From an uncultured Gammaproteobacteria bacterium (GTDB lineage: Bacteria > Patescibacteriota > Patescibacteriia > SG8-24), in assembly GCA_964491475.1 (NCBI GenBank), contig CAZBFO010000003.1:8766-72765 (forward strand): 64,000 nt of DNA, in the 5' to 3' direction. A model generated the notes under the pieces. The model did no database searches. It was not told the DNA's origin and saw nothing but the letters and a program-made list of their open reading frames with translations. Each line of letters opens with the position of its first letter. Position 1 is the first letter of the stretch. Shown here one piece after another: positions 279 to 12,339 of this stretch. The position numbers and the translations under genes are program-made.

Positions 279-297
279 AGAGGGCTTCGAGCCCTCT
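279..297. terminator. hairpin 3' of the pth stop, probably bidirectional
   Basis: agagggc-ttcga-gccctct 7-bp stem with A/T-rich flanks on both sides. Confidence 0.45.
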
Positions 298-298
298 T

Positions 299-889
299 TT
301 ACTTCCCGTAAGTATTTGCGGCAACGTCGAGGCCGTCGGTCAGAGTCGTTTCCAGCGCTTTCACGGCGTTTTCGACTGCCTTTTCCAGCTCGCCCTCCTC
401 ATCCTTGCCGAACTTCTCCAGGACGAAGTCCTCGGCCGGAACGGTCTTGGCCCGTTCGGTCCCGATGCCGATGCGGACGCGTGCCACGTCCGGCGTTCCC
501 AGCCGTTCGATGACGTTCTTGATGCCGTTGTGCCCGCCGGCCGATCCGGTTGCGCGAATGCGGATGTTGCCCAGCGGAATGTCGAGCTCGTCGTAGACCA
601 CGATGATGTCGGCGGGGGAGAGCTTCCAGAAGCCTGCGGCCACCGCCACCGCCTCGCCGGAAAGGTTCATGTACGTTTGGGGCAGCATCAGCGCCACCTT
701 CTCACTGCCGACGCGCCCTTCCGAAACCTCGGCATTGAACTTATTCTTCCAGCCGTCAAAAGCGTCGGCATGCAGGGTATGAAAAGCCCGAAGCGCACGG
801 AAGCCGGCATTATGCCGAGTCTTCTCGTATTGCGCTCCGGGATTTCCGAGTCCGACGATCAGTTTCATACGGGTGACCATCTTTGCCAC
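299..889 (-). CDS. pth: peptidyl-tRNA hydrolase
   Basis: 196 aa; N-terminal GLGNPG..Y..TRHNAGF and GHNG motifs typical of Pth. Confidence 0.9.
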   Translation of the reverse strand: MAKMVTRMKLIVGLGNPGAQYEKTRHNAGFRALRAFHTLHADAFDGWKNKFNAEVSEGRVGSEKVALMLPQTYMNLSGEAVAVAAGFWKLSPADIIVVYDELDIPLGNIRIRATGSAGGHNGIKNVIERLGTPDVARVRIGIGTERAKTVPAEDFVLEKFGKDEEGELEKAVENAVKALETTLTDGLDVAANTYGK

Positions 890-4856: not shown

Positions 4857-6272
4857 ATGCCAGCAACCAAAACGAAAAAGCCGGCCGCCGCCAAGTCGAA
4901 GGGTCCTTCCTTCACCAAGGCTTCCGACGGCAAGCCTTCCGCCAAGCGCCAGTCGCAAGGTCTCGATCCGGCCGCGCAGAAGCCGGTGTCCACCAAGGGT
5001 ACGCCGCAGACTCCACGCGGCATGCGCGACATCGTCCCCAGCGAGCAGAAGTACTGGAGGCACATCTACCGCAAGGCCGAGGAACTGACCGCGGCCTACG
5101 GCTTCGAGCGCCTCGACACGCCCATCCTCGAGGAGACTTCGCTGTTCGTGCGCTCCGCCGGCAAGCAGAGCGACGTGGTCGAGAAGGAAATGTTCTCGTT
5201 CATCGACAAGGGCGGCGACAACGTCACCCTGCGCCCCGAAGGCACCGCTCCGATGGTCCGCGCCTACGTCAACCATGGCATGGTCAACCTGCCGCAGCCG
5301 GTAAAGATGTACTACTGGGGTCCGATGTTCCGCTACGAGCGTCCGCAGCACGGCCGCTTCCGCCAGCACCACCAGTTCGGCGTGGAGGTGTTCGGCGATG
5401 CCAGCCCCGTGCAGGACTGCGAGGTGATCCTGCTCGCGTACCTGTTCTACAAGGAGCTGGGCATCAAGACCGCCATCCACATCAACAGCCTCGGTTGCTC
5501 CGGTTGCCGTGCCACCTACGCCACCGAGCTGGCCAACTACTACCGCACCAAGCGCAACCAGATTTGCGAGGACTGCAAGCGCCGCCTGGCCAAGAGCCCG
5601 CTCCGTCTGCTCGACTGCAAAGAGGCCGGCTGCCAGCCCGTCAAGGAAGGCGCGCCGCACATCGTCGACTTCCTCGACGAGGAGTGCAAGAACCACCTGA
5701 TGCGCGTGCTGGAGTACTTGGATGACCTGCAGGTGCCGTACGTGCTGAACCCGCACCTCGTTCGCGGCTTCGACTACTACACCCGCACGGTGTTCGAGAT
5801 CATGCTGGCCGAAGAGAATCCCGAGCAGTCGCAGATCGCGCTCGGCGGGGGAGGCCGGTACGACACGCTCGTGGAGCAGCTCGGCGGCCGCCCCACTCCT
5901 GCCTGCGGCTTCGGCATCGGCGTGGAACGCGTCATTCTCCAGCTGAAGGCGCAGCAGATCGAGCCCAAGGACGATCGTCGCCCGGACATCTTTCTTGCCC
6001 AGCTCGGCGACGCCGCCCGCCGCAAGGCCTTCATGCTGTTCGAGGACCTGCGCGCTTCCGGCGTGCACGCCTCGGCCAACTTCTCCAAGGGCGCGTTGAA
6101 GGGACAACTCGAAATCGCCAACCGCCTCGGTGCCAAGTACACCGTGATCCTCGGTCAAAAAGAGGTCATCGACGGCACCGTCCTCATCCGCGACATGGAG
6201 TCGGGCATGCAGGAGATCGTGCTGTACGACAAGGCCGGTTCGGAGATCAAGAAGAAGCTCGGCAAAGTCTAG
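4857..6272 (+). CDS. hisS: histidyl-tRNA synthetase with ~45-aa Lys/Pro-rich N-terminal extension
   Basis: 471 aa; class II aaRS motifs, RPEGTAPMVRAY, GGGRYD, HisRS anticodon-binding C-terminus; extension MPATKTKKPAAAKSKG... precedes the conserved RGMRD start region. Confidence 0.9.
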   Translation: MPATKTKKPAAAKSKGPSFTKASDGKPSAKRQSQGLDPAAQKPVSTKGTPQTPRGMRDIVPSEQKYWRHIYRKAEELTAAYGFERLDTPILEETSLFVRSAGKQSDVVEKEMFSFIDKGGDNVTLRPEGTAPMVRAYVNHGMVNLPQPVKMYYWGPMFRYERPQHGRFRQHHQFGVEVFGDASPVQDCEVILLAYLFYKELGIKTAIHINSLGCSGCRATYATELANYYRTKRNQICEDCKRRLAKSPLRLLDCKEAGCQPVKEGAPHIVDFLDEECKNHLMRVLEYLDDLQVPYVLNPHLVRGFDYYTRTVFEIMLAEENPEQSQIALGGGGRYDTLVEQLGGRPTPACGFGIGVERVILQLKAQQIEPKDDRRPDIFLAQLGDAARRKAFMLFEDLRASGVHASANFSKGALKGQLEIANRLGAKYTVILGQKEVIDGTVLIRDMESGMQEIVLYDKAGSEIKKKLGKV

Positions 6273-6278
6273 CCGAAG

Positions 6279-6328
6279 CGCAGGAACGCAAAACGCCCTG
6301 GTTTCTCGGGGCGTTTTGCGTTCCTGCG
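6279..6328. repeat. 20-bp perfect inverted repeat (hairpin) between the convergent hisS and Fic-like genes
   Basis: cgcaggaacgcaaaacgccc (6279-6298) pairs perfectly with gggcgttttgcgttcctgcg (6309-6328); 10-nt loop; no flanking U-tract. Confidence 0.7.
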
Positions 6329-6361: not shown

Positions 6362-7816
6362 TCAGTCATTGAGGCCGTTGATGTTCATCAGGGCGTCGTA
6401 CAGTATTTTGCGGTTTTCAGGAAGTGACGCCTTTCCGTAGTACCCCGGCTCGTTGGCGATCTTGTATTGTTCGTGGCCGACGACGGCGATGGCCACGGGG
6501 TTGTAACCGACGATTTTGGCAAGATTCTTGTAGTAGTCCTTTTCGCGCGTCTTGGGCGGTTCGACGCCCTTCTTGGCCATCAGCAGTTCCAGGAACAGGA
6601 GAGACGTGCTCCCGTTGCGGTCGCCGAAGGGGTGCATGTCGAGCAGGTCATTGTGCAGTTTCGCGGCTTCGATTTCGTAGCGCATTTTGGAGGTGTTCTC
6701 CACGATGCTCTTATCGAACAGGTCGTTGGCCCGATCGATCATCTTCTCCATCTCTGGCCGCACGTCGTCGCTAAGGAGCCCGAGGCGCCTGTTGAAGGTC
6801 ACCACCATGTTCGGATCCTCGCGCAGCTTCGAGAACTCCTTGGGCACGATGCCCTTGTTGTTGAGCGCGTGCAGTTCCTCGATCATCGACAGCTCGATGG
6901 TGGGCGCGTCCGCCATCTTCTTGATGGCATCGGCAACGGCTTCACGATTGCTTTCCTTGAGCTGCTCCAATTCTTCGCGCGTGCGGCCGTACAGCTCCTT
7001 CGTGGTGTTCTCGATGCTTTGCGCCGAACCCGATTGCAGCCTGTGCGCCACCATTTCGTCTTCGATGAAATCGCTGAATTGGTCGAAGATTTCCGCGAAG
7101 GCCTTGTTGACCTCGGGTTTGAGCTGACCGCTGCGTTTCACCGAAGAAAGCTGGTTGAAACGGTTGTAAATGTTGCGCCAAGTGGTCTCGCTGCCTTGCT
7201 GGCTGCGGGGTATCTGCTTGGAGAGCGCGTTCAGCGTGCCCATGATTTCTGACAGTTCGCCCTTGAGTTTTTCCGGATCGGCGCCTTCGAGTTCAAGGTC
7301 CTGTCCCAGCGAGTCGATGTTCCTGAACGCCTGGCCCACGAGCTGTTCTTGGATGCCTTTTTCCATCGCCTCGGCGATGTTGGCACGCGAAGCGTCCAGC
7401 TTGCTGTTCTTCGCGCCAAGGTACATGACCGCGAGCTTGTCGCGATCGGCCGCGGAGACGCCTTCCAGCTTCACGCCGTAGGCCGAAGCCAGCGTATTGA
7501 GCTCGGCCGAAAACGCCTCGTCCTCAAGCATCGCGGGATCGTAGGCGGCGATGATTTCGAGCGATGCCTGCGCGTCCAAGCCCTTGGCATGCAACGCGTC
7601 GAGCAGCGGCCGGCGTTCCTTCTTTTCACGCTCGCGTTTTGCCTCGGGAGTCTCTCGACGATCGGGCCCACCCTCGCCCTTTTCGACGGTCTCCGGGATA
7701 TCCGCATCCGAGATTTCTTCCTCCTCGTCAAAAGAAACGTCAATCGAGCCGTCATCGGGCATCGCCGGCGGCTCCTTATCGCCCGGAGGCACATATTGTC
7801 GCATTTCCGGACCCAT
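6362..7816 (-). CDS. Fic-domain-like protein with degenerate active-site motif and long acidic/helical N-terminal region
   Basis: 484 aa; C-terminal HPFGDRNGSTSLLFLELL aligns to the Fic core HPFx[DE]GNGRxxRLL with substitutions; N-terminus E/D/K-rich. Confidence 0.55.
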   Translation of the reverse strand: MGPEMRQYVPPGDKEPPAMPDDGSIDVSFDEEEEISDADIPETVEKGEGGPDRRETPEAKREREKKERRPLLDALHAKGLDAQASLEIIAAYDPAMLEDEAFSAELNTLASAYGVKLEGVSAADRDKLAVMYLGAKNSKLDASRANIAEAMEKGIQEQLVGQAFRNIDSLGQDLELEGADPEKLKGELSEIMGTLNALSKQIPRSQQGSETTWRNIYNRFNQLSSVKRSGQLKPEVNKAFAEIFDQFSDFIEDEMVAHRLQSGSAQSIENTTKELYGRTREELEQLKESNREAVADAIKKMADAPTIELSMIEELHALNNKGIVPKEFSKLREDPNMVVTFNRRLGLLSDDVRPEMEKMIDRANDLFDKSIVENTSKMRYEIEAAKLHNDLLDMHPFGDRNGSTSLLFLELLMAKKGVEPPKTREKDYYKNLAKIVGYNPVAIAVVGHEQYKIANEPGYYGKASLPENRKILYDALMNINGLND

Positions 7817-7826
7817 GGAGGCGGTG

Positions 7827-8141
7827 CTAATGTCGCAGTCCGAGCGACTTGCGGACTTCCTCGGCCGCGTCCTCGTCCCGCTCTTCGGACTCGTTGCGGA
7901 TCGGATCGCGGATGCCCAAGGTAATCTCGGGGTACTGTTTGACCAGGTCCATCATCGACTCAGGCGGCACTTCGTTCGGAAACTGCTGCGTCAGTCGCAC
8001 CGCTTCCTTGGCGAGACCTCGGATGCGTTCAATCGGGACGTTTCCCTTTTCGAGCTCCTTGGCTATTTCGTCCAAGAGCGTTTTTTGCAGATCGTACGTT
8101 TTCATACGGTCTCGAAAATCCGAGTCTTCATAAGACTGCAT
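7827..8141 (-). CDS. hypothetical small protein, co-oriented immediately upstream of the Fic-like gene
   Basis: 104 aa ORF ending 10 nt before the Fic-like start; acidic C-terminus; no recognisable motif. Confidence 0.4.
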   Translation of the reverse strand: MQSYEDSDFRDRMKTYDLQKTLLDEIAKELEKGNVPIERIRGLAKEAVRLTQQFPNEVPPESMMDLVKQYPEITLGIRDPIRNESEERDEDAAEEVRKSLGLRH

Positions 8142-8164
8142 TATACCATTTTTAAGCCTAAAAG

Positions 8165-8190
8165 AAAAGGGCGCATGAAGCGCCCCTTAT
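8165..8190. terminator. intrinsic terminator for the metallophosphoesterase gene
   Basis: gggcgc-atgaa-gcgccc hairpin with A/T-rich flanks. Confidence 0.5.
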
Positions 8191-8195
8191 CGGTA

Positions 8196-9211: not shown

Positions 9212-9472
9212 GTGACTATTGTGGCTGAAGTGAAACGAAAGAAAGGTGAAAGCTTTGAGAGCCTTCTGCGCCGGTTTAGCCGGAAAGTGCAGGACAGCGG
9301 CAAGCTTCTTCAGAAAAAGAAGATTCGGTACCACTCGCGCGACAAGTCCAAGACCGCAGTGCGAGCCGCAGCCCTTCGTCGCGAATATCTGCGCGCCAAG
9401 CGCGATTTCTTGATCAAGTCTGGTCAGGCAACCGAAGAAGATTTCCGCCCGAAGCGCGGAGGTCGCCGTTAA
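9212..9472 (+). CDS. rpsU: 30S ribosomal protein S21 (GTG start)
   Basis: 86 aa basic protein; V.V...E.FE..LRRF.R motif; preceded by aagaaagagagg RBS. Confidence 0.8.
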   Translation: MTIVAEVKRKKGESFESLLRRFSRKVQDSGKLLQKKKIRYHSRDKSKTAVRAAALRREYLRAKRDFLIKSGQATEEDFRPKRGGRR

Positions 9473-9484
9473 ACCCGTACCGCG

Positions 9485-9937
9485 ATGACTACCCGAGAGC
9501 GCATCGAAAGCGACTTCACCAGGGAATTCAAAGCACGCAACGCATCCGCCGTGTCCGCACTGCGGATGCTTCGCGCCGCCGTGAAGAACGTGGAGATCGA
9601 CAAGATGCACGCGCTTTCGGAGGAAGAGGTCGTCGACGTGGTCGGCAGGGAGGTCAAGAAACTCCGCGACGGTCTTGAATCGTTCAAGGCTGGCGGACGC
9701 GACGATCTTGCGGCGGGAGTCGCCGCCGAGATCGCGCTGATCGAGACCTACCTCCCGGCCCAGCTCGATGACGCAGCACTGGGTGAACTGGTAGGGAAGA
9801 CCGCGGCCGGCTTGGGTCCGCTCACCGAAAAGGACTTCGGACGGCTCATGAAGGAAGTCATGAAGGCCGCAGCCGGGAAGGCGGACGGGCAAAAGGTCAG
9901 CGCCGCCGTAAAGTCGGCCCTGGCACCAAAGACGTAG
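9485..9937 (+). CDS. yqeY: GatB/YqeY domain protein
   Basis: 150 aa; FKARNASAVSALRMLRAAVKNVEID...IETYLP pattern typical of the YqeY family. Confidence 0.85.
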   Translation: MTTRERIESDFTREFKARNASAVSALRMLRAAVKNVEIDKMHALSEEEVVDVVGREVKKLRDGLESFKAGGRDDLAAGVAAEIALIETYLPAQLDDAALGELVGKTAAGLGPLTEKDFGRLMKEVMKAAAGKADGQKVSAAVKSALAPKT

Positions 9938-9990: not shown

Positions 9991-12339
9991 ATGCTTGGAA
10001 GAGGTGCGAAACGAAAGAACGGGCAGCCCTGGTGGCTGCAAAAGAAGACCGCCTTTTTGACGCTCGCGGTTTTTCTTTTTGTCGGAACGGCGGTGTTCGG
10101 CCATGCTGTTGCCGCGTTCGCGCAGGTCAATGCCAAGGTCGGCCTCGGCGTCGAGTTTGCCACGGCGACCGGGCTGGCTACAGGCGACATCCGCACCTAC
10201 GTCTCCAAGATCATCCGCTACTTCCTGCTGCTGCTCGGCACCATCGCCGTGATCCTTTGCATGTACGCCGGCTTCCTCTGGATGACGGCCGGCGGCAACG
10301 AAGAAAAGATTTCCCAAGCGAAGAAAATCCTGACTAACGCGGTGATCGGCCTGCTCATCATCGTCGCCGCATACGCCATCGTGGCGTTCATCTTGCAATC
10401 TTTGGGCATCGATACCGGAGGGGGAGTGACTTCGAGCGGATCCGGTTCCTCGGGCGCCTTGTCCGGCGGAGGAAACGGCTCCAGTCAGCTGGGCAACGGC
10501 ATCATCGAGTACCACTATCCGGAACCGGGACAGACCGACGTGCCCCGCAACACCAAGATTTCGATCACCTTCAAGAAGCCGCTGGTGCTGTCGTCGGTCA
10601 TCAAGAACTACAACGACAAGGGCACTTATGATCCTTCCGACGACCTGCTGTGCGCCAGCGGCAATACTTGCGCTACCGGTACCGCGATTACCTCCGGCAC
10701 GGTGCTTTCCCTGAACACCGATAACATCAAGATCATTCCCAACAGCGCCTTGTTGCCTGGCGGTTCGGGCACTATCGACCAGCAATTCACCAATCGGTAT
10801 CCTGCCGCCTCGACCTCTGACGCCACCTCTCGCTTCACCGCCGTGGTGGTGCCGATGACCGCCGGTCAGCAGCAGACCATCGTGCTCAAGCCGGTGGCGC
10901 CGATCGGTTCCGCCACCGAGAACGTGAACTATCGCGTGGCGCTGCGCGGCGGCGACAACGGCGTGAAGGCCTGGACGCTCCCCGCCACCGGCGCGACGCC
11001 CGTTGCCGGTGCGGCCTTCTCGCGCACCTATGCCGACGGCGGCTATTACTGGTCTTTCACCACCAGCACCATCATCGACGTGACGCCGCCGCAGATCACC
11101 TCGGTCGTCTCTTCGACCTCGTACCCGGTCGGAACGCCGAGCACTTCGATCCTGTACCGCAACCAGTTGCTGCAGATCTACTTTAACGAAGCCATCGATC
11201 CGACCACTTCTACCGGCATCATCGGCACCGGTCCGGGCGGGGGATTCACGATCATTTCCGTTACGGGTCAGTGCAAGCCGGGCACCTATGATGCCAGCGG
11301 CGTCAACGACCCGACGAAGTGCGTCTTCAACGGCGGCAATCCCGGTTCCATCGACGGTACCGTGGCCATCGGCAATCGCAGCACCACGCTGGAGTTCACG
11401 CCGAGCACCCTCTGCGAAAACGTGCCCCTGAACTCCTGCGGCGAGCAGGTGTTCTGCCTGCCGAAGAACGTTCAGCTGACGGTGCGCGCGCTGGCCGCTT
11501 CCATCGGAGCCAGCGGTCCTTCCTCCATAGCTTCCGACGGCGTCGTCGACATGGCCGATAACTCCATGGACGGCAACCAGAACGGCACGGCAGAAGGTCG
11601 TCCGTCGGCGGTGCAGACCGTCAATCCGGCGAGGACTGCCGACTTCTACCGAAACAACCCGCAGACTGGCACCGACCTGGACACCGTGGACGACAACGCC
11701 AAATGGGACTATTGGGTGGGGGCGGACGTGGATTTGGTGGCCCCGTTCATCACCGAGATGGACCCGATTCCGCTGGGTAACGGCGCTCCGCTGCAGTATC
11801 CGGCCGGACCTTCGCAGGTGCCTCCGGACTTGGTGCCCGCGATCACCTGGAGCAAGGTCATGAGCATCGGCTCCATCCGCACCGGCGCGTTCGACGAATC
11901 GACGAAATCCTACACGCCGCCCACGTCGACGCTTTCGCTCCGTTCAAACGAATGCAAGAAGAACGGCGCCGACGCCTGCAAGCCGGGCGTGGCCTGCGCC
12001 TGCACGCCTGTCGAAGCTCCGGGATACTTCATCGACTCCGGCCTGCCTATAGCGGGATCGAACGGCGCCTTCTTTACCAAGATGCGCTTCCTGCATCCGG
12101 TCCGTCCGTTTTTTACGGCGAACGATCTCGGGTATACTGATGCTGACGTGCTGGCAGGCGCGAACATCCCCATGTACGTGCCCATCTCGCGGGCCCAACT
12201 GCGCGACACCCGGCAGAACTGCTTCTACCCCAGCAAGTACACCTCGTGCAGTACCAATCCTTCCACCGGTCAAACGTCCTGCTGCAACAGCCAAGTGACG
12301 GCAGACGGCACGTTCCTCACTACGTGCACGCCCAACTAG
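9991..12339 (+). CDS. large secreted/surface protein: signal peptide plus two-helix pilin-like (VirB2/TrbC-type architecture) N-terminal module, Ig-like domains, Cys-rich C-terminus
   Basis: 782 aa; N-terminal ~130 aa paralogous to the N-terminus of the following giant ORF (..YAGFLWMTAGGNEEKISQAKKIL..); Ser/Thr/Gly-rich beta-domain-like repeats; C-terminal CCNSQV..C. Confidence 0.8.
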   Translation: MLGRGAKRKNGQPWWLQKKTAFLTLAVFLFVGTAVFGHAVAAFAQVNAKVGLGVEFATATGLATGDIRTYVSKIIRYFLLLLGTIAVILCMYAGFLWMTAGGNEEKISQAKKILTNAVIGLLIIVAAYAIVAFILQSLGIDTGGGVTSSGSGSSGALSGGGNGSSQLGNGIIEYHYPEPGQTDVPRNTKISITFKKPLVLSSVIKNYNDKGTYDPSDDLLCASGNTCATGTAITSGTVLSLNTDNIKIIPNSALLPGGSGTIDQQFTNRYPAASTSDATSRFTAVVVPMTAGQQQTIVLKPVAPIGSATENVNYRVALRGGDNGVKAWTLPATGATPVAGAAFSRTYADGGYYWSFTTSTIIDVTPPQITSVVSSTSYPVGTPSTSILYRNQLLQIYFNEAIDPTTSTGIIGTGPGGGFTIISVTGQCKPGTYDASGVNDPTKCVFNGGNPGSIDGTVAIGNRSTTLEFTPSTLCENVPLNSCGEQVFCLPKNVQLTVRALAASIGASGPSSIASDGVVDMADNSMDGNQNGTAEGRPSAVQTVNPARTADFYRNNPQTGTDLDTVDDNAKWDYWVGADVDLVAPFITEMDPIPLGNGAPLQYPAGPSQVPPDLVPAITWSKVMSIGSIRTGAFDESTKSYTPPTSTLSLRSNECKKNGADACKPGVACACTPVEAPGYFIDSGLPIAGSNGAFFTKMRFLHPVRPFFTANDLGYTDADVLAGANIPMYVPISRAQLRDTRQNCFYPSKYTSCSTNPSTGQTSCCNSQVTADGTFLTTCTPN

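Follow-up and report, generated by a model that had tools for sequence, protein, structure and literature searches.

Fic proteins are described by the motif HxFx(D/E)GN(G/K)RxxR (PMC8097203), and all Fic reactions require the histidine as base or acid together with an acidic residue that binds a metal (PMC6408439; PMC8097203). The two arginines of the motif bind the ribose and the gamma-phosphate, and the second of them is also the salt-bridge partner of the inhibitory glutamate (PMC8097203). Fido enzymes with altered motifs perform other phosphoryl chemistry, examples being the kinase Doc and the phosphocholine transferase AnkX (see also PMC8097203). The subject of this study is a 484-amino-acid (aa) Fic-like protein encoded on the minus strand of the window, a stretch of 64,000 nucleotides (nt) from contig CAZBFO010000003.1 of an uncultured bacterium. 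It is a genuine Fic-fold (Fido superfamily) protein in which both motif arginines are replaced. The variant motif is invariant across its family, and its gene is linked to that of a calcineurin-like metallophosphoesterase with an intact active site. The fold and the superfamily are already known. No description of the motif variant, of the phosphoesterase partnership or of the sister family treated below was found in Pfam, NCBIfam, PADLOC, PHROGs or the literature searched, where the string DRNGST was not found as a protein motif and Fic domains and metallophosphoesterases are nowhere treated as partners. Changes in this single motif have repeatedly switched the chemistry of Fic enzymes, giving AMPylation, phosphorylation (Doc) and phosphocholination (AnkX). 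The present family has lost both arginines deemed essential for the use of nucleoside triphosphates (NTPs), has all other catalytic residues fixed, and is tied genetically to its own phosphoesterase. The resulting three-protein system can be used to probe what else the Fic fold can do, and it is a rare handle on protein regulation in candidate phyla radiation (CPR) bacteria, for which most biological knowledge is deduced from genome sequences.

The best profile and structural match is with the class II AMPylating and deAMPylating enzymes FICD/HYPE and C. elegans FIC-1. Features in common are an N-terminal helical region, a flap, H-P-F-x-D-x-N-G in the loop between alpha4 and alpha5, G-Y-x-P after alpha5, and an R...YY segment. 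In contrast, the window family has arginine for the first glycine, serine and leucine for the two arginines, and glutamate (E410) for the alpha5 asparagine. It also has no recognisable conserved (T/S)xxIE(G/N) and no detected TPR domain, and it differs from FICD and FIC-1 in its phosphoesterase neighbour.

Doc of phage P1 is likewise a Fido enzyme with an altered motif, and its gene follows a small partner gene. It lacks the second arginine and binds its donor in a non-AMPylating mode. Doc comprises only about 125 aa with no N-terminal domain, its Lys-Arg is Gly-Ser in the window family, and its partner Phd is a DNA-binding antitoxin. The Doc motif HxFx(D/N)(A/G)NKR is thus absent, positions 8-9 being G402-S403, and the corresponding model TIGR01550 (NCBIfam DOC_P1), whose cut-off is 38.65, gives 18.5 bits. 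In the Fic enzyme AnkX the motif is non-canonical through a glycine-to-alanine change; the first arginine is retained, and the protein has ankyrin repeats. Its motif HxFxDANGR differs from the one found here, where S403 replaces the arginine and position 6 is arginine, not alanine; apart from Fic, Pfam detects no ankyrin or other domain in the Fic-like protein and no recurrent one in 34 family members. In the Legionella pairs AnkX/Lem3 and SidM/SidD, a transferase adds a phosphodiester-linked group and a separate hydrolase removes it, so that a writer is matched with a dedicated eraser. The scheme proposed below resembles this logic. Lem3 and SidD are not calcineurin-like metallophosphoesterases, and the Legionella pairs are secreted effectors, not a fixed adjacent cassette. 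VbhT/VbhA and other class I FicTA modules also have the gene of a small helical protein directly upstream of, and translationally coupled to, the Fic gene. Unlike VbhA, the small protein of the window has no inhibitory motif or fold match. The Fic-like protein has no glutamate-binding arginine, and the small gene is dispensable in several lineages.

A Fic fold with an invariant variant motif

The preliminary description of this DNA had proposed a Fic fold from an HPF motif, and profile and structure checks of the kind that it named recover one, by Pfam PF02661, by hhalign, and by AlphaFold with Foldseek; a failure of these methods to find a Fic fold is not what was observed. Alone, the protein scores 25.0 bits against Pfam Fic (gathering score 24, E 3.5e-5), and a single-sequence phmmer search of the PDB gives FICD homologues at E ~1e-3. 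The margin of just 1 bit over the cut-off would suit a chance HPF match in a non-Fic helical protein, an explanation of negligible probability. In contrast, all 34 of the 34 aligned family members match Pfam Fic individually (best E 3.1e-8), and no other Pfam domain is recurrent among them. A word-indexed search yields 36 relatives, and an exhaustive HMMER scan of 1.84 billion cluster representatives yields 92, of which 65 have E<=1e-30. The family profile (alignment A1) matches FICD in the PDB at E 3.6e-9, from the flap across the catalytic loop and the helix next to it, as far as alpha6. With hhalign, three canonical class II Fic proteins from the HMMER scan (SN[KR]MEG ... HPF[YF]DGNGR) served as targets, with match probabilities of 98.5% and 98.1% (query ~214/216-440/484). 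The AlphaFold2 model built on alignment A1 has a mean predicted local distance difference test (pLDDT) of 85.4 and a predicted template modelling score of 0.76. Its top 25 Foldseek matches in the PDB are FICD and FIC-1 chains (probability 1.0, E down to 7.7e-6), followed by BT_2513, Bep proteins, VbhT, SoFic and IbpA. Fic proteins are thus recovered confidently by profile, profile-profile and structure searches, and these matches rule out a chance HPF motif.

The catalytic loop and the start of alpha5 comprise the variant motif HPFGDRNGSTSL, within the longer stretch HPFGDRNGSTSLLFLELL (residues 395-412). By residue it is H395-P-F-G-D399-R400-N401-G402-S403-T404-S-L406. The substitutions read from the sequence earlier are correct, the first glycine being Arg400, the first arginine Ser403 and the second arginine Leu406; the His, Phe, Asp, Asn and second Gly of the published motif are retained. 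Across the family the same three changes separate the protein from the canonical AMPylating motif HxFx(D/E)GNGRxxR. Conservation was counted in an alignment of 80 family members, each of at least 330 aa. K287, N290, R291, N320, R332, H395, P396, D399, R400, N401, G402, S403, E410 and G458 are invariant (80/80), and L315, N319, P325, R344, G346, A385, H388, N389, L392, M413, G417, P420, R424 and A442 are present in at least 76. T404 occurs in 79 members. Position 406, where the canonical second arginine would be, has leucine in 68, methionine in 8 and valine in 3. The signature HP[FYWL]xDRNGS[T] is found in about 90 family representatives, and its conservation is deep because the host genomes span 40% to 65% GC. 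The term "degenerate", used in the preliminary description, therefore does not fit a variant that is invariant in 80 of 80 members, including the catalytic histidine, the metal-binding aspartate and the anion-hole Asn-Gly. Of the options left open there, an inactive protein is the less likely, given a motif that does not vary across the family. Judged from the alignment, the motif is a selected alternative active site and not a decayed one.

Precisely the two arginines are lost, while the histidine, the metal-binding aspartate and the anion-hole Asn-Gly stay. The gained residues are the invariant arginine at motif position 6, a Ser-Thr pair (S403 in 80/80, T404 in 79/80), the K-x-x-N-R of alpha1, and the invariant E410, one helical turn past the former position of the second arginine. 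K287, N290 and R291 are candidates for relocated phosphate-binding residues or for partners of E410, and the gained residues as a group may rebuild a phosphate-binding site of different geometry.

A pseudoenzyme or scaffold would use the Fic fold as a ligand- or protein-binding module, either to sense a phosphorylated ligand or to recruit the phosphoesterase to a target. This is unlikely, even though the loss of both phosphate-binding arginines is in line with it and the large helical N-terminal domain and acidic disordered tail look adaptor-like. A non-canonical Fic domain that works by protein-protein interaction is found in BepC (PMC8097203). However, His395, Asp399, Asn401 and Gly402 are invariant in 80/80 members, as are many polar residues around the site, and the sister family too keeps H, D, N and G while its arginines are replaced by Thr or Ser. 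Pseudoenzymes usually lose the catalytic base. If the protein is a pseudoenzyme, it is still a well-defined, conserved and dead-looking Fic protein paired with a live hydrolase.

The family also departs from the glutamate-inhibited Fic proteins of classes I-III, as the second motif arginine is absent and position 406 is hydrophobic. Where class III proteins have a C-terminal inhibitory helix, the conserved C-terminal element here is a non-helical P-G458-Y-Y-(E)-G segment, whose invariant G458 forms a beta-bridge with F397 of the catalytic loop in the model. The glutamate of this segment is present in only 30 of the 80 members and is absent in the window protein. Three positions are candidates for an inhibitory glutamate, namely E252, the loop 261-263, and E269. 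In the hhalign profile-profile alignment the canonical inhibitory S-x-x-x-E-G maps to the variable loop 258-264. E269 is glutamate in 69/80 members and lies at the start of helix 268-276, 126 residues before H395; the alignment to the PADLOC SoFic model begins at residue 268. Around E269 neither a preceding S/T nor a following G/N is conserved among the 80 members.

These positions bear on a further reading, in which the Fic-like protein is itself a dedicated hydrolase (e.g., a de-NMPylase) that uses His395, an Asp399-bound metal and a carboxylate, in series with the metallophosphoesterase. It is quite unlikely. With a single-phosphate phosphodiester as substrate, the arginines for the beta- and gamma-phosphates would be dispensable, which directly accounts for the loss of the NTP-binding arginines, and both genes would then encode phosphoester hydrolases of one coherent pathway. 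DeAMPylation by EfFIC uses the catalytic histidine, the acidic motif residue and a conserved glutamate in one site (PMC6408439), and the histidine and aspartate are invariant here. The residues around E269, S-I-E-N, are similar to the inhibitory motif published for HYPE, (T/S)V(A/G)IEN (PMC8097203). The spacing of 126 residues from E269 to the histidine is close to the spacing of 129 in FICD. In contrast, the canonical S-x-x-x-E-G aligns to loop 258-264 and not to E269, E269 is not invariant, the neighbourhood has no candidate writer, and a dedicated Fic hydrolase is not known.

Linkage to a metallophosphoesterase

The strongest partner of the Fic-like protein is the metallophosphoesterase, which the preliminary description missed and which is linked to it in both directions. 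It scores 39.7 bits against PF00149 (cut-off 21.5, E 9.3e-10) and keeps D8-x-H10, G42-D43, G70-N71-H72-D73, H190-H191 and G237-H238-x-H240; the motifs DxH, GD, GNH(D/E), H and GHxH are all present. D8, H10, G42, D43, G70, N71, H72, H190, H191, G237, H238 and H240 are invariant in 22 orthologues. With 86.3 bits against a cut-off of 148.25 for TIGR03729 (acc_ester), it represents a related subfamily and is not a member. Among solved structures the best match is 6unc, a "Metallophos domain-containing protein" that is itself uncharacterised, and no literature was found that discusses 6unc together with a metallophosphoesterase.

In nine contexts fetched by exact protein look-up, a Metallophos gene of 264-294 aa lies directly upstream on the same strand (9/9), and the outer flanks differ among them. 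A scan of one genome per species places the metallophosphoesterase directly upstream of the Fic-like gene in 23 of 27 loci, the exceptions being L021, L027, L028 and L035, which have no phosphoesterase. The reciprocal test was a metagenome scan seeded with the phosphoesterase alignment and covered 80 loci. Every phosphoesterase that reaches at least 318 bits with the cassette profile and has at least about 900 nt of downstream sequence is followed by a Fic-like gene (20/20), and all complete Fic-like copies in this test carry HP[FY]xDRNGST. About 60 distant phosphoesterases (<=314 bits) have no Fic-like gene, even where 3.4 kb of downstream sequence is available, and this distant clade has no conserved neighbour. 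That the Fic-like gene is linked so strictly, and in both directions, to an intact phosphoesterase argues for a single phosphoester-containing molecule on which the two proteins act.

The best explanation, favoured tentatively and at somewhat less than an even chance, is an active non-canonical Fic transferase with a remodelled, functional active site and a phosphoesterase as its eraser. A working active site is argued from the invariant base, metal ligand and anion hole, and from the coordinated exchange of the arginines for other polar residues that do not vary. The absence of both arginines speaks against a use of ATP in the geometry that is standard for AMPylation. The analysis shows the fold, the invariant motif, the intact phosphoesterase site and the linkage of the genes; that the protein is catalytically active, what kind of donor and target it has, and that the phosphoesterase is an eraser are what we infer. 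His395 would be the general base or acid, Asp399 would hold a divalent metal, and the backbone of the R400-N401-G402-S403 turn would form an anion hole for one phosphate. Without arginines that grip the beta- and gamma-phosphates of ATP, a phosphate-containing donor would be bound differently, or another molecule would be used; Arg400, the hydroxyls of Ser403/Thr404 and the K287/N290/R291 cluster of alpha1 are candidate substitutes. The flap (residues 331-346) and the N-terminal helical domain would present a protein hydroxyl for modification. The metallophosphoesterase would hydrolyse the resulting phosphoester or phosphodiester as the eraser to the Fic writer, and the pair could serve in regulation, or the eraser could be an antidote that protects the cell itself. 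The small 92-aa protein, whose translation would be coupled to that of the Fic-like gene, may be an accessory regulator, adaptor or substrate. A writer with an eraser is the simplest scheme for the phosphoesterase linkage, and it is a plausible one that falls a little short of even probability.

Several points weigh against an active transferase with an eraser. To our knowledge, no active Fic transferase that has been characterised lacks both arginines of the motif, and even Doc keeps the first. R400, K287 and R291 are candidates for compensating roles. L021, L027, L028, L035 and the long-form locus L119 keep the Fic-like protein without the phosphoesterase, and in these subclades the Fic-like protein can evidently function without it. 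In the window, a hairpin resembling a terminator and an element resembling a promoter lie between the phosphoesterase gene and the pair formed by the small open reading frame (ORF) and the Fic-like gene. Finally, the non-canonical Fic domain of BepC acts non-catalytically (PMC8097203).

The more general proposal is that DRNGST Fic proteins perform a post-translational modification, or its removal, with a chemistry novel for the Fido superfamily, using a donor for which arginines need not clamp a pyrophosphate leaving group, and that with the phosphoesterase they form a reversible switch. It is speculative and on balance rather improbable. The same degree of doubt attaches to its phylogenetic side, in which Patescibacteria/CPR would have the switch together with the phosphoesterase, and at least one non-CPR marine bacterium would have a longer form that lacks this partner.

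Some observations concern the arrangement of the two genes. The Fic-like genes of L021 (1484-2971) and L035 (3503-5317) are second, paralogous copies in genomes that also hold the full cassette. They have in common a conserved upstream ORF of about 240 aa, and in L035 the copy is broken up into two ORFs and may be a pseudogene. A 288-aa protein (P0093/P0120/P0122) is a truncated in-frame chimera of phosphoesterase residues 1-162 (motifs I-III) and the Fic part from alpha4 to the C-terminus (HPLVDRNGST). The chimera was seen on 14 contigs as well as in an NCBI record. It is more likely the relic of a deletion, and as such a witness to the adjacency of the two genes, than a functional fusion. 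A Rosetta-stone fusion was also considered for the family members of 600-760 aa and rejected, as their N-terminal extensions correspond neither to the phosphoesterase nor to the small protein.

The small upstream gene and transcription signals

The minus strand carries three consecutive genes, those of the metallophosphoesterase, the small ORF and the Fic-like protein. The two ORFs reported in the preliminary description lie where it placed them, at 6362..7816 (484 aa) and 7827..8141 (104 aa) on the minus strand, and the spacing of 10 nt between them (7817..7826) is also confirmed. The 484-aa start of the Fic-like protein is backed by N-terminal homology with two relatives (P0002 and P0003). 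The small gene is real, although its product is more likely to start at the ATG at 8105 and to have 92 aa than to have 104 aa from 8141. The start is placed at 8105 because the homologues, of 90-97 aa, begin at the equivalent methionine, the database gene call is 92 aa, and the ATG at 8141 sits within the extended -10-like element TGGTATAAT. Differences from the related locus L001 fall at third codon positions in 55 of 97 cases, a bias that marks the small ORF as a coding gene.

The suggested synteny check shows a true syntenic partner that most related loci retain; in at least 16 of them a homologous gene of about 90 aa precedes the Fic-like gene by 2-12 nt. Four loci have a version of about 50 aa, and in four there is a mere 78-98-nt gap between the phosphoesterase and the Fic-like gene. 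In L018, L022 and L034 the gap of 312-345 nt fits the small protein, and no ORF of at least 40 aa was found there; possible reasons are a difficulty with the start codon or the reading frame, or decay of the gene. The small protein is acidic (isoelectric point (pI) 4.95), and its single-sequence model is helical with a pLDDT of 67. It has no Pfam family and no DNA-binding domain, and in the 12-member alignment it has no conserved polar motif, the only invariant residues being M1 and A32. The model gives no PDB fold match at E<1, and none to antitoxins. An assignment as the small subunit of exonuclease VII (XseB) was rejected at 17.8-18.2 bits against a cut-off of 24, with only 3 of 12 homologues giving any match.

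The class I antitoxin analogy of the preliminary description fails. As suspected there, no (S/T)xxxE(G/N) inhibitory motif is conserved in the small protein (12-member alignment). Several loci with a Fic-like gene have no small gene or one of only about 50 aa, and the arginine to which an inhibitory glutamate would bind is leucine. A VbhA-like antitoxin is rejected for the lack of both the motif and a fold match at E<1. The small protein is a lineage-variable accessory partner and not a class I antitoxin.

In a toxin-antitoxin or defence module, a Fic toxin would be neutralised by the small protein, as in class I FicTA, or enzymatically by the phosphoesterase. Such a module is very unlikely. 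The order of small ORF and Fic gene with a 2-12-nt gap is FicTA-like, the strict linkage of phosphoesterase and Fic-like gene suits an enzymatic antidote, and there are PADLOC matches of Fic type (PDC-S04, SoFic) and phosphoesterase type (PDC-S10). In contrast, those matches are weak and partial, the small protein lacks both (S/T)xxxE(G/N) and a DNA-binding domain, the arginine partner is absent, and there are loci where the Fic-like gene is retained with no small ORF or with one of half the length. The cassette is also single-copy in a housekeeping setting, with the same flanks in relatives that are 66% identical. The enzymatic-antidote version overlaps with the proposal of a transferase and its eraser. 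A known anti-phage defence system is rejected, as the matches to PDC-S04 (E 6e-6), SoFic (E 3e-4) and PDC-S10 (E 1e-8 over 85 residues) are all weak, partial and generic, and the small protein has no PADLOC match. A phage origin is rejected too, the PHROG matches being weak or generic.

The terminator-like hairpin after the phosphoesterase stop folds at -16.7 kcal/mol (z -3.1) and is followed by UUUUCUUUU. Going by consensus matches only, the small ORF and the Fic-like gene may form their own bicistron, with the phosphoesterase transcribed separately. On the other side, the gene of histidyl-tRNA synthetase (HisRS; 4857..6272, +) converges on the downstream side of the Fic-like gene, and the hairpin between them is probably a bidirectional terminator.

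Relatives, protein anatomy and neighbouring genes

In the 27 species-level loci, all credible labels are Patescibacteria (Uhrbacteria, Parcubacteria, Magasanikbacteria); a few loci carry implausible automatic labels of metagenome-assembled genomes. Some family members have 600-760 aa with unrelated N-terminal extensions. P0075 (L119 5741-7624, L120 5680-7563) is a 627-aa long-form DRNGST member on a 40-kb marine contig with a GC content of 42.5%. The contig has genes for citrate synthase, methylisocitrate lyase and beta-oxidation, a content that is not CPR-like. Next after P0075 comes a 307-aa protein with leucine-rich repeats, and there is no phosphoesterase within 6 kb; here the same variant of the active site could serve an effector-like function. 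The DRNGST motif family, found mainly in the tiny CPR bacteria, is thus broader than CPR, and the phosphoesterase pairing is its CPR form.

The closest non-members form a sister family of HPHxDGNGT type, found among the weakest matches (P0099-P0112, E 1e-8 to 1e-4). Its members are P0099, P0102, P0103, P0104, P0105, P0110, P0111 and P0112, with loci L037 5001-6539 and L038 5001-6374. They also lack both arginines and have Thr/Ser/Gln and a hydrophobic residue instead. Common features are [KR]xxN in alpha1, GIVP...R before the flap, RxG in the flap and the alpha5 glutamate. Unlike the DRNGST family, the sister family keeps glycine at motif position 6 and has histidine or another residue in place of the motif phenylalanine. 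No phosphoesterase neighbour is present in the two loci examined. P0112 is annotated as Candidatus Woesebacteria (a CPR lineage), and most sister members carry no taxonomic label. Canonical HPFxDGNGRxxR proteins appear only beyond the sister family in the search ranking.

The Fic fold comprises a class II-like N-terminal helix, alpha1, alpha2, the flap, alpha3, alpha4, the catalytic loop, and alpha5 onward. In the flap, R332 is invariant, and R344 and G346 are nearly so. The preliminary description of the first ~330 residues as acidic and helical makes the part outside the Fic fold too large. Residues 1-56 are acidic (pI 4.05) and predicted to be disordered, residues 57-262 are helical (pI 5.0), and the Fic fold begins at about 263-268, leaving about 260 residues outside it. 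The disordered segment is poorly conserved in alignment A1. Residues 57-262 match no Pfam family in the 34 members, and this modelled helical domain is possibly a target-recognition domain. The coordinates are collected in Table 1.

Table 1. Features of the Fic-like protein and its locus, with coordinates in the window
Feature	Residues	Position	Strand	Basis
Fic-like protein, 484 aa		6362..7816 incl. stop	-	ORF list, Pfam Fic, AlphaFold, Foldseek
Acidic (pI 4.05), predicted disordered N-terminus	1-56	7649..7816	-	pLDDT <50 for residues 1-53; composition
All-helical N-terminal domain, pI 5.0	57-262	7031..7648	-	pLDDT 80-95
Fic fold	263-484	6365..7030	-	hhalign; PDB profile match to FICD
Short helix	268-276			AlphaFold model
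alpha1	280-302			AlphaFold model
alpha1 basic/polar cluster K287-E-S-N290-R291	287-291	6944..6958	-	80/80 invariant
alpha2	309-319			AlphaFold model
Flap beta-hairpin	331-346	6779..6826	-	DSSP strands 331, 340-341, 344-345; FICD flap alignment
alpha3	349-372			AlphaFold model
alpha4	377-394			AlphaFold model
HPF catalytic loop	395-401			AlphaFold model
Variant motif HPFGDRNGSTSL	395-406	6599..6634	-	Translation; family alignment
alpha5	402-414			AlphaFold model
Three further helices	after alpha5 to C-terminus			AlphaFold model
Small acidic helical protein, 92 aa		7827..8105	-	Homologues, database gene call
Calcineurin-like metallophosphoesterase, 279 aa		8196..9035	-	Pfam Metallophos; conserved partner gene
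Extended -10-like element TGGTATAAT		8140..8148	-	Consensus match; overlaps ATG at 8141
Intrinsic-terminator-like hairpin + U-tract		8164..8191	-	Terminator scan, stem 8188..8166; just after phosphoesterase stop
20-bp nearly perfect hairpin, between convergent Fic-like and HisRS genes		6280..6328		-40.3 kcal/mol, z -10.0

The cassette is single-copy, is located among housekeeping genes, and has the same flanks as in the 66%-identical relatives. The Pfam catalytic domain of HisRS starts at residue 55, preceded by an extension of some 50 residues in which Lys, Pro, Ala and Ser are abundant. A 782-aa protein with an N-terminal membrane segment is encoded at 9991..12339 (+). Its L001 orthologue has a PF18895 T4SS_pilin domain and is followed by a 3588-aa protein. 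The two are surface or pilus-like giant proteins of the type found in CPR genomes, and such genes are not kept beside the cassette in other loci. The gene at 9212..9472 (+) encodes a homologue of ribosomal protein S21 with a C-terminal extension, at 26.0 bits against a Pfam cut-off of 27, and is directly followed by the YqeY gene (9485..9937).

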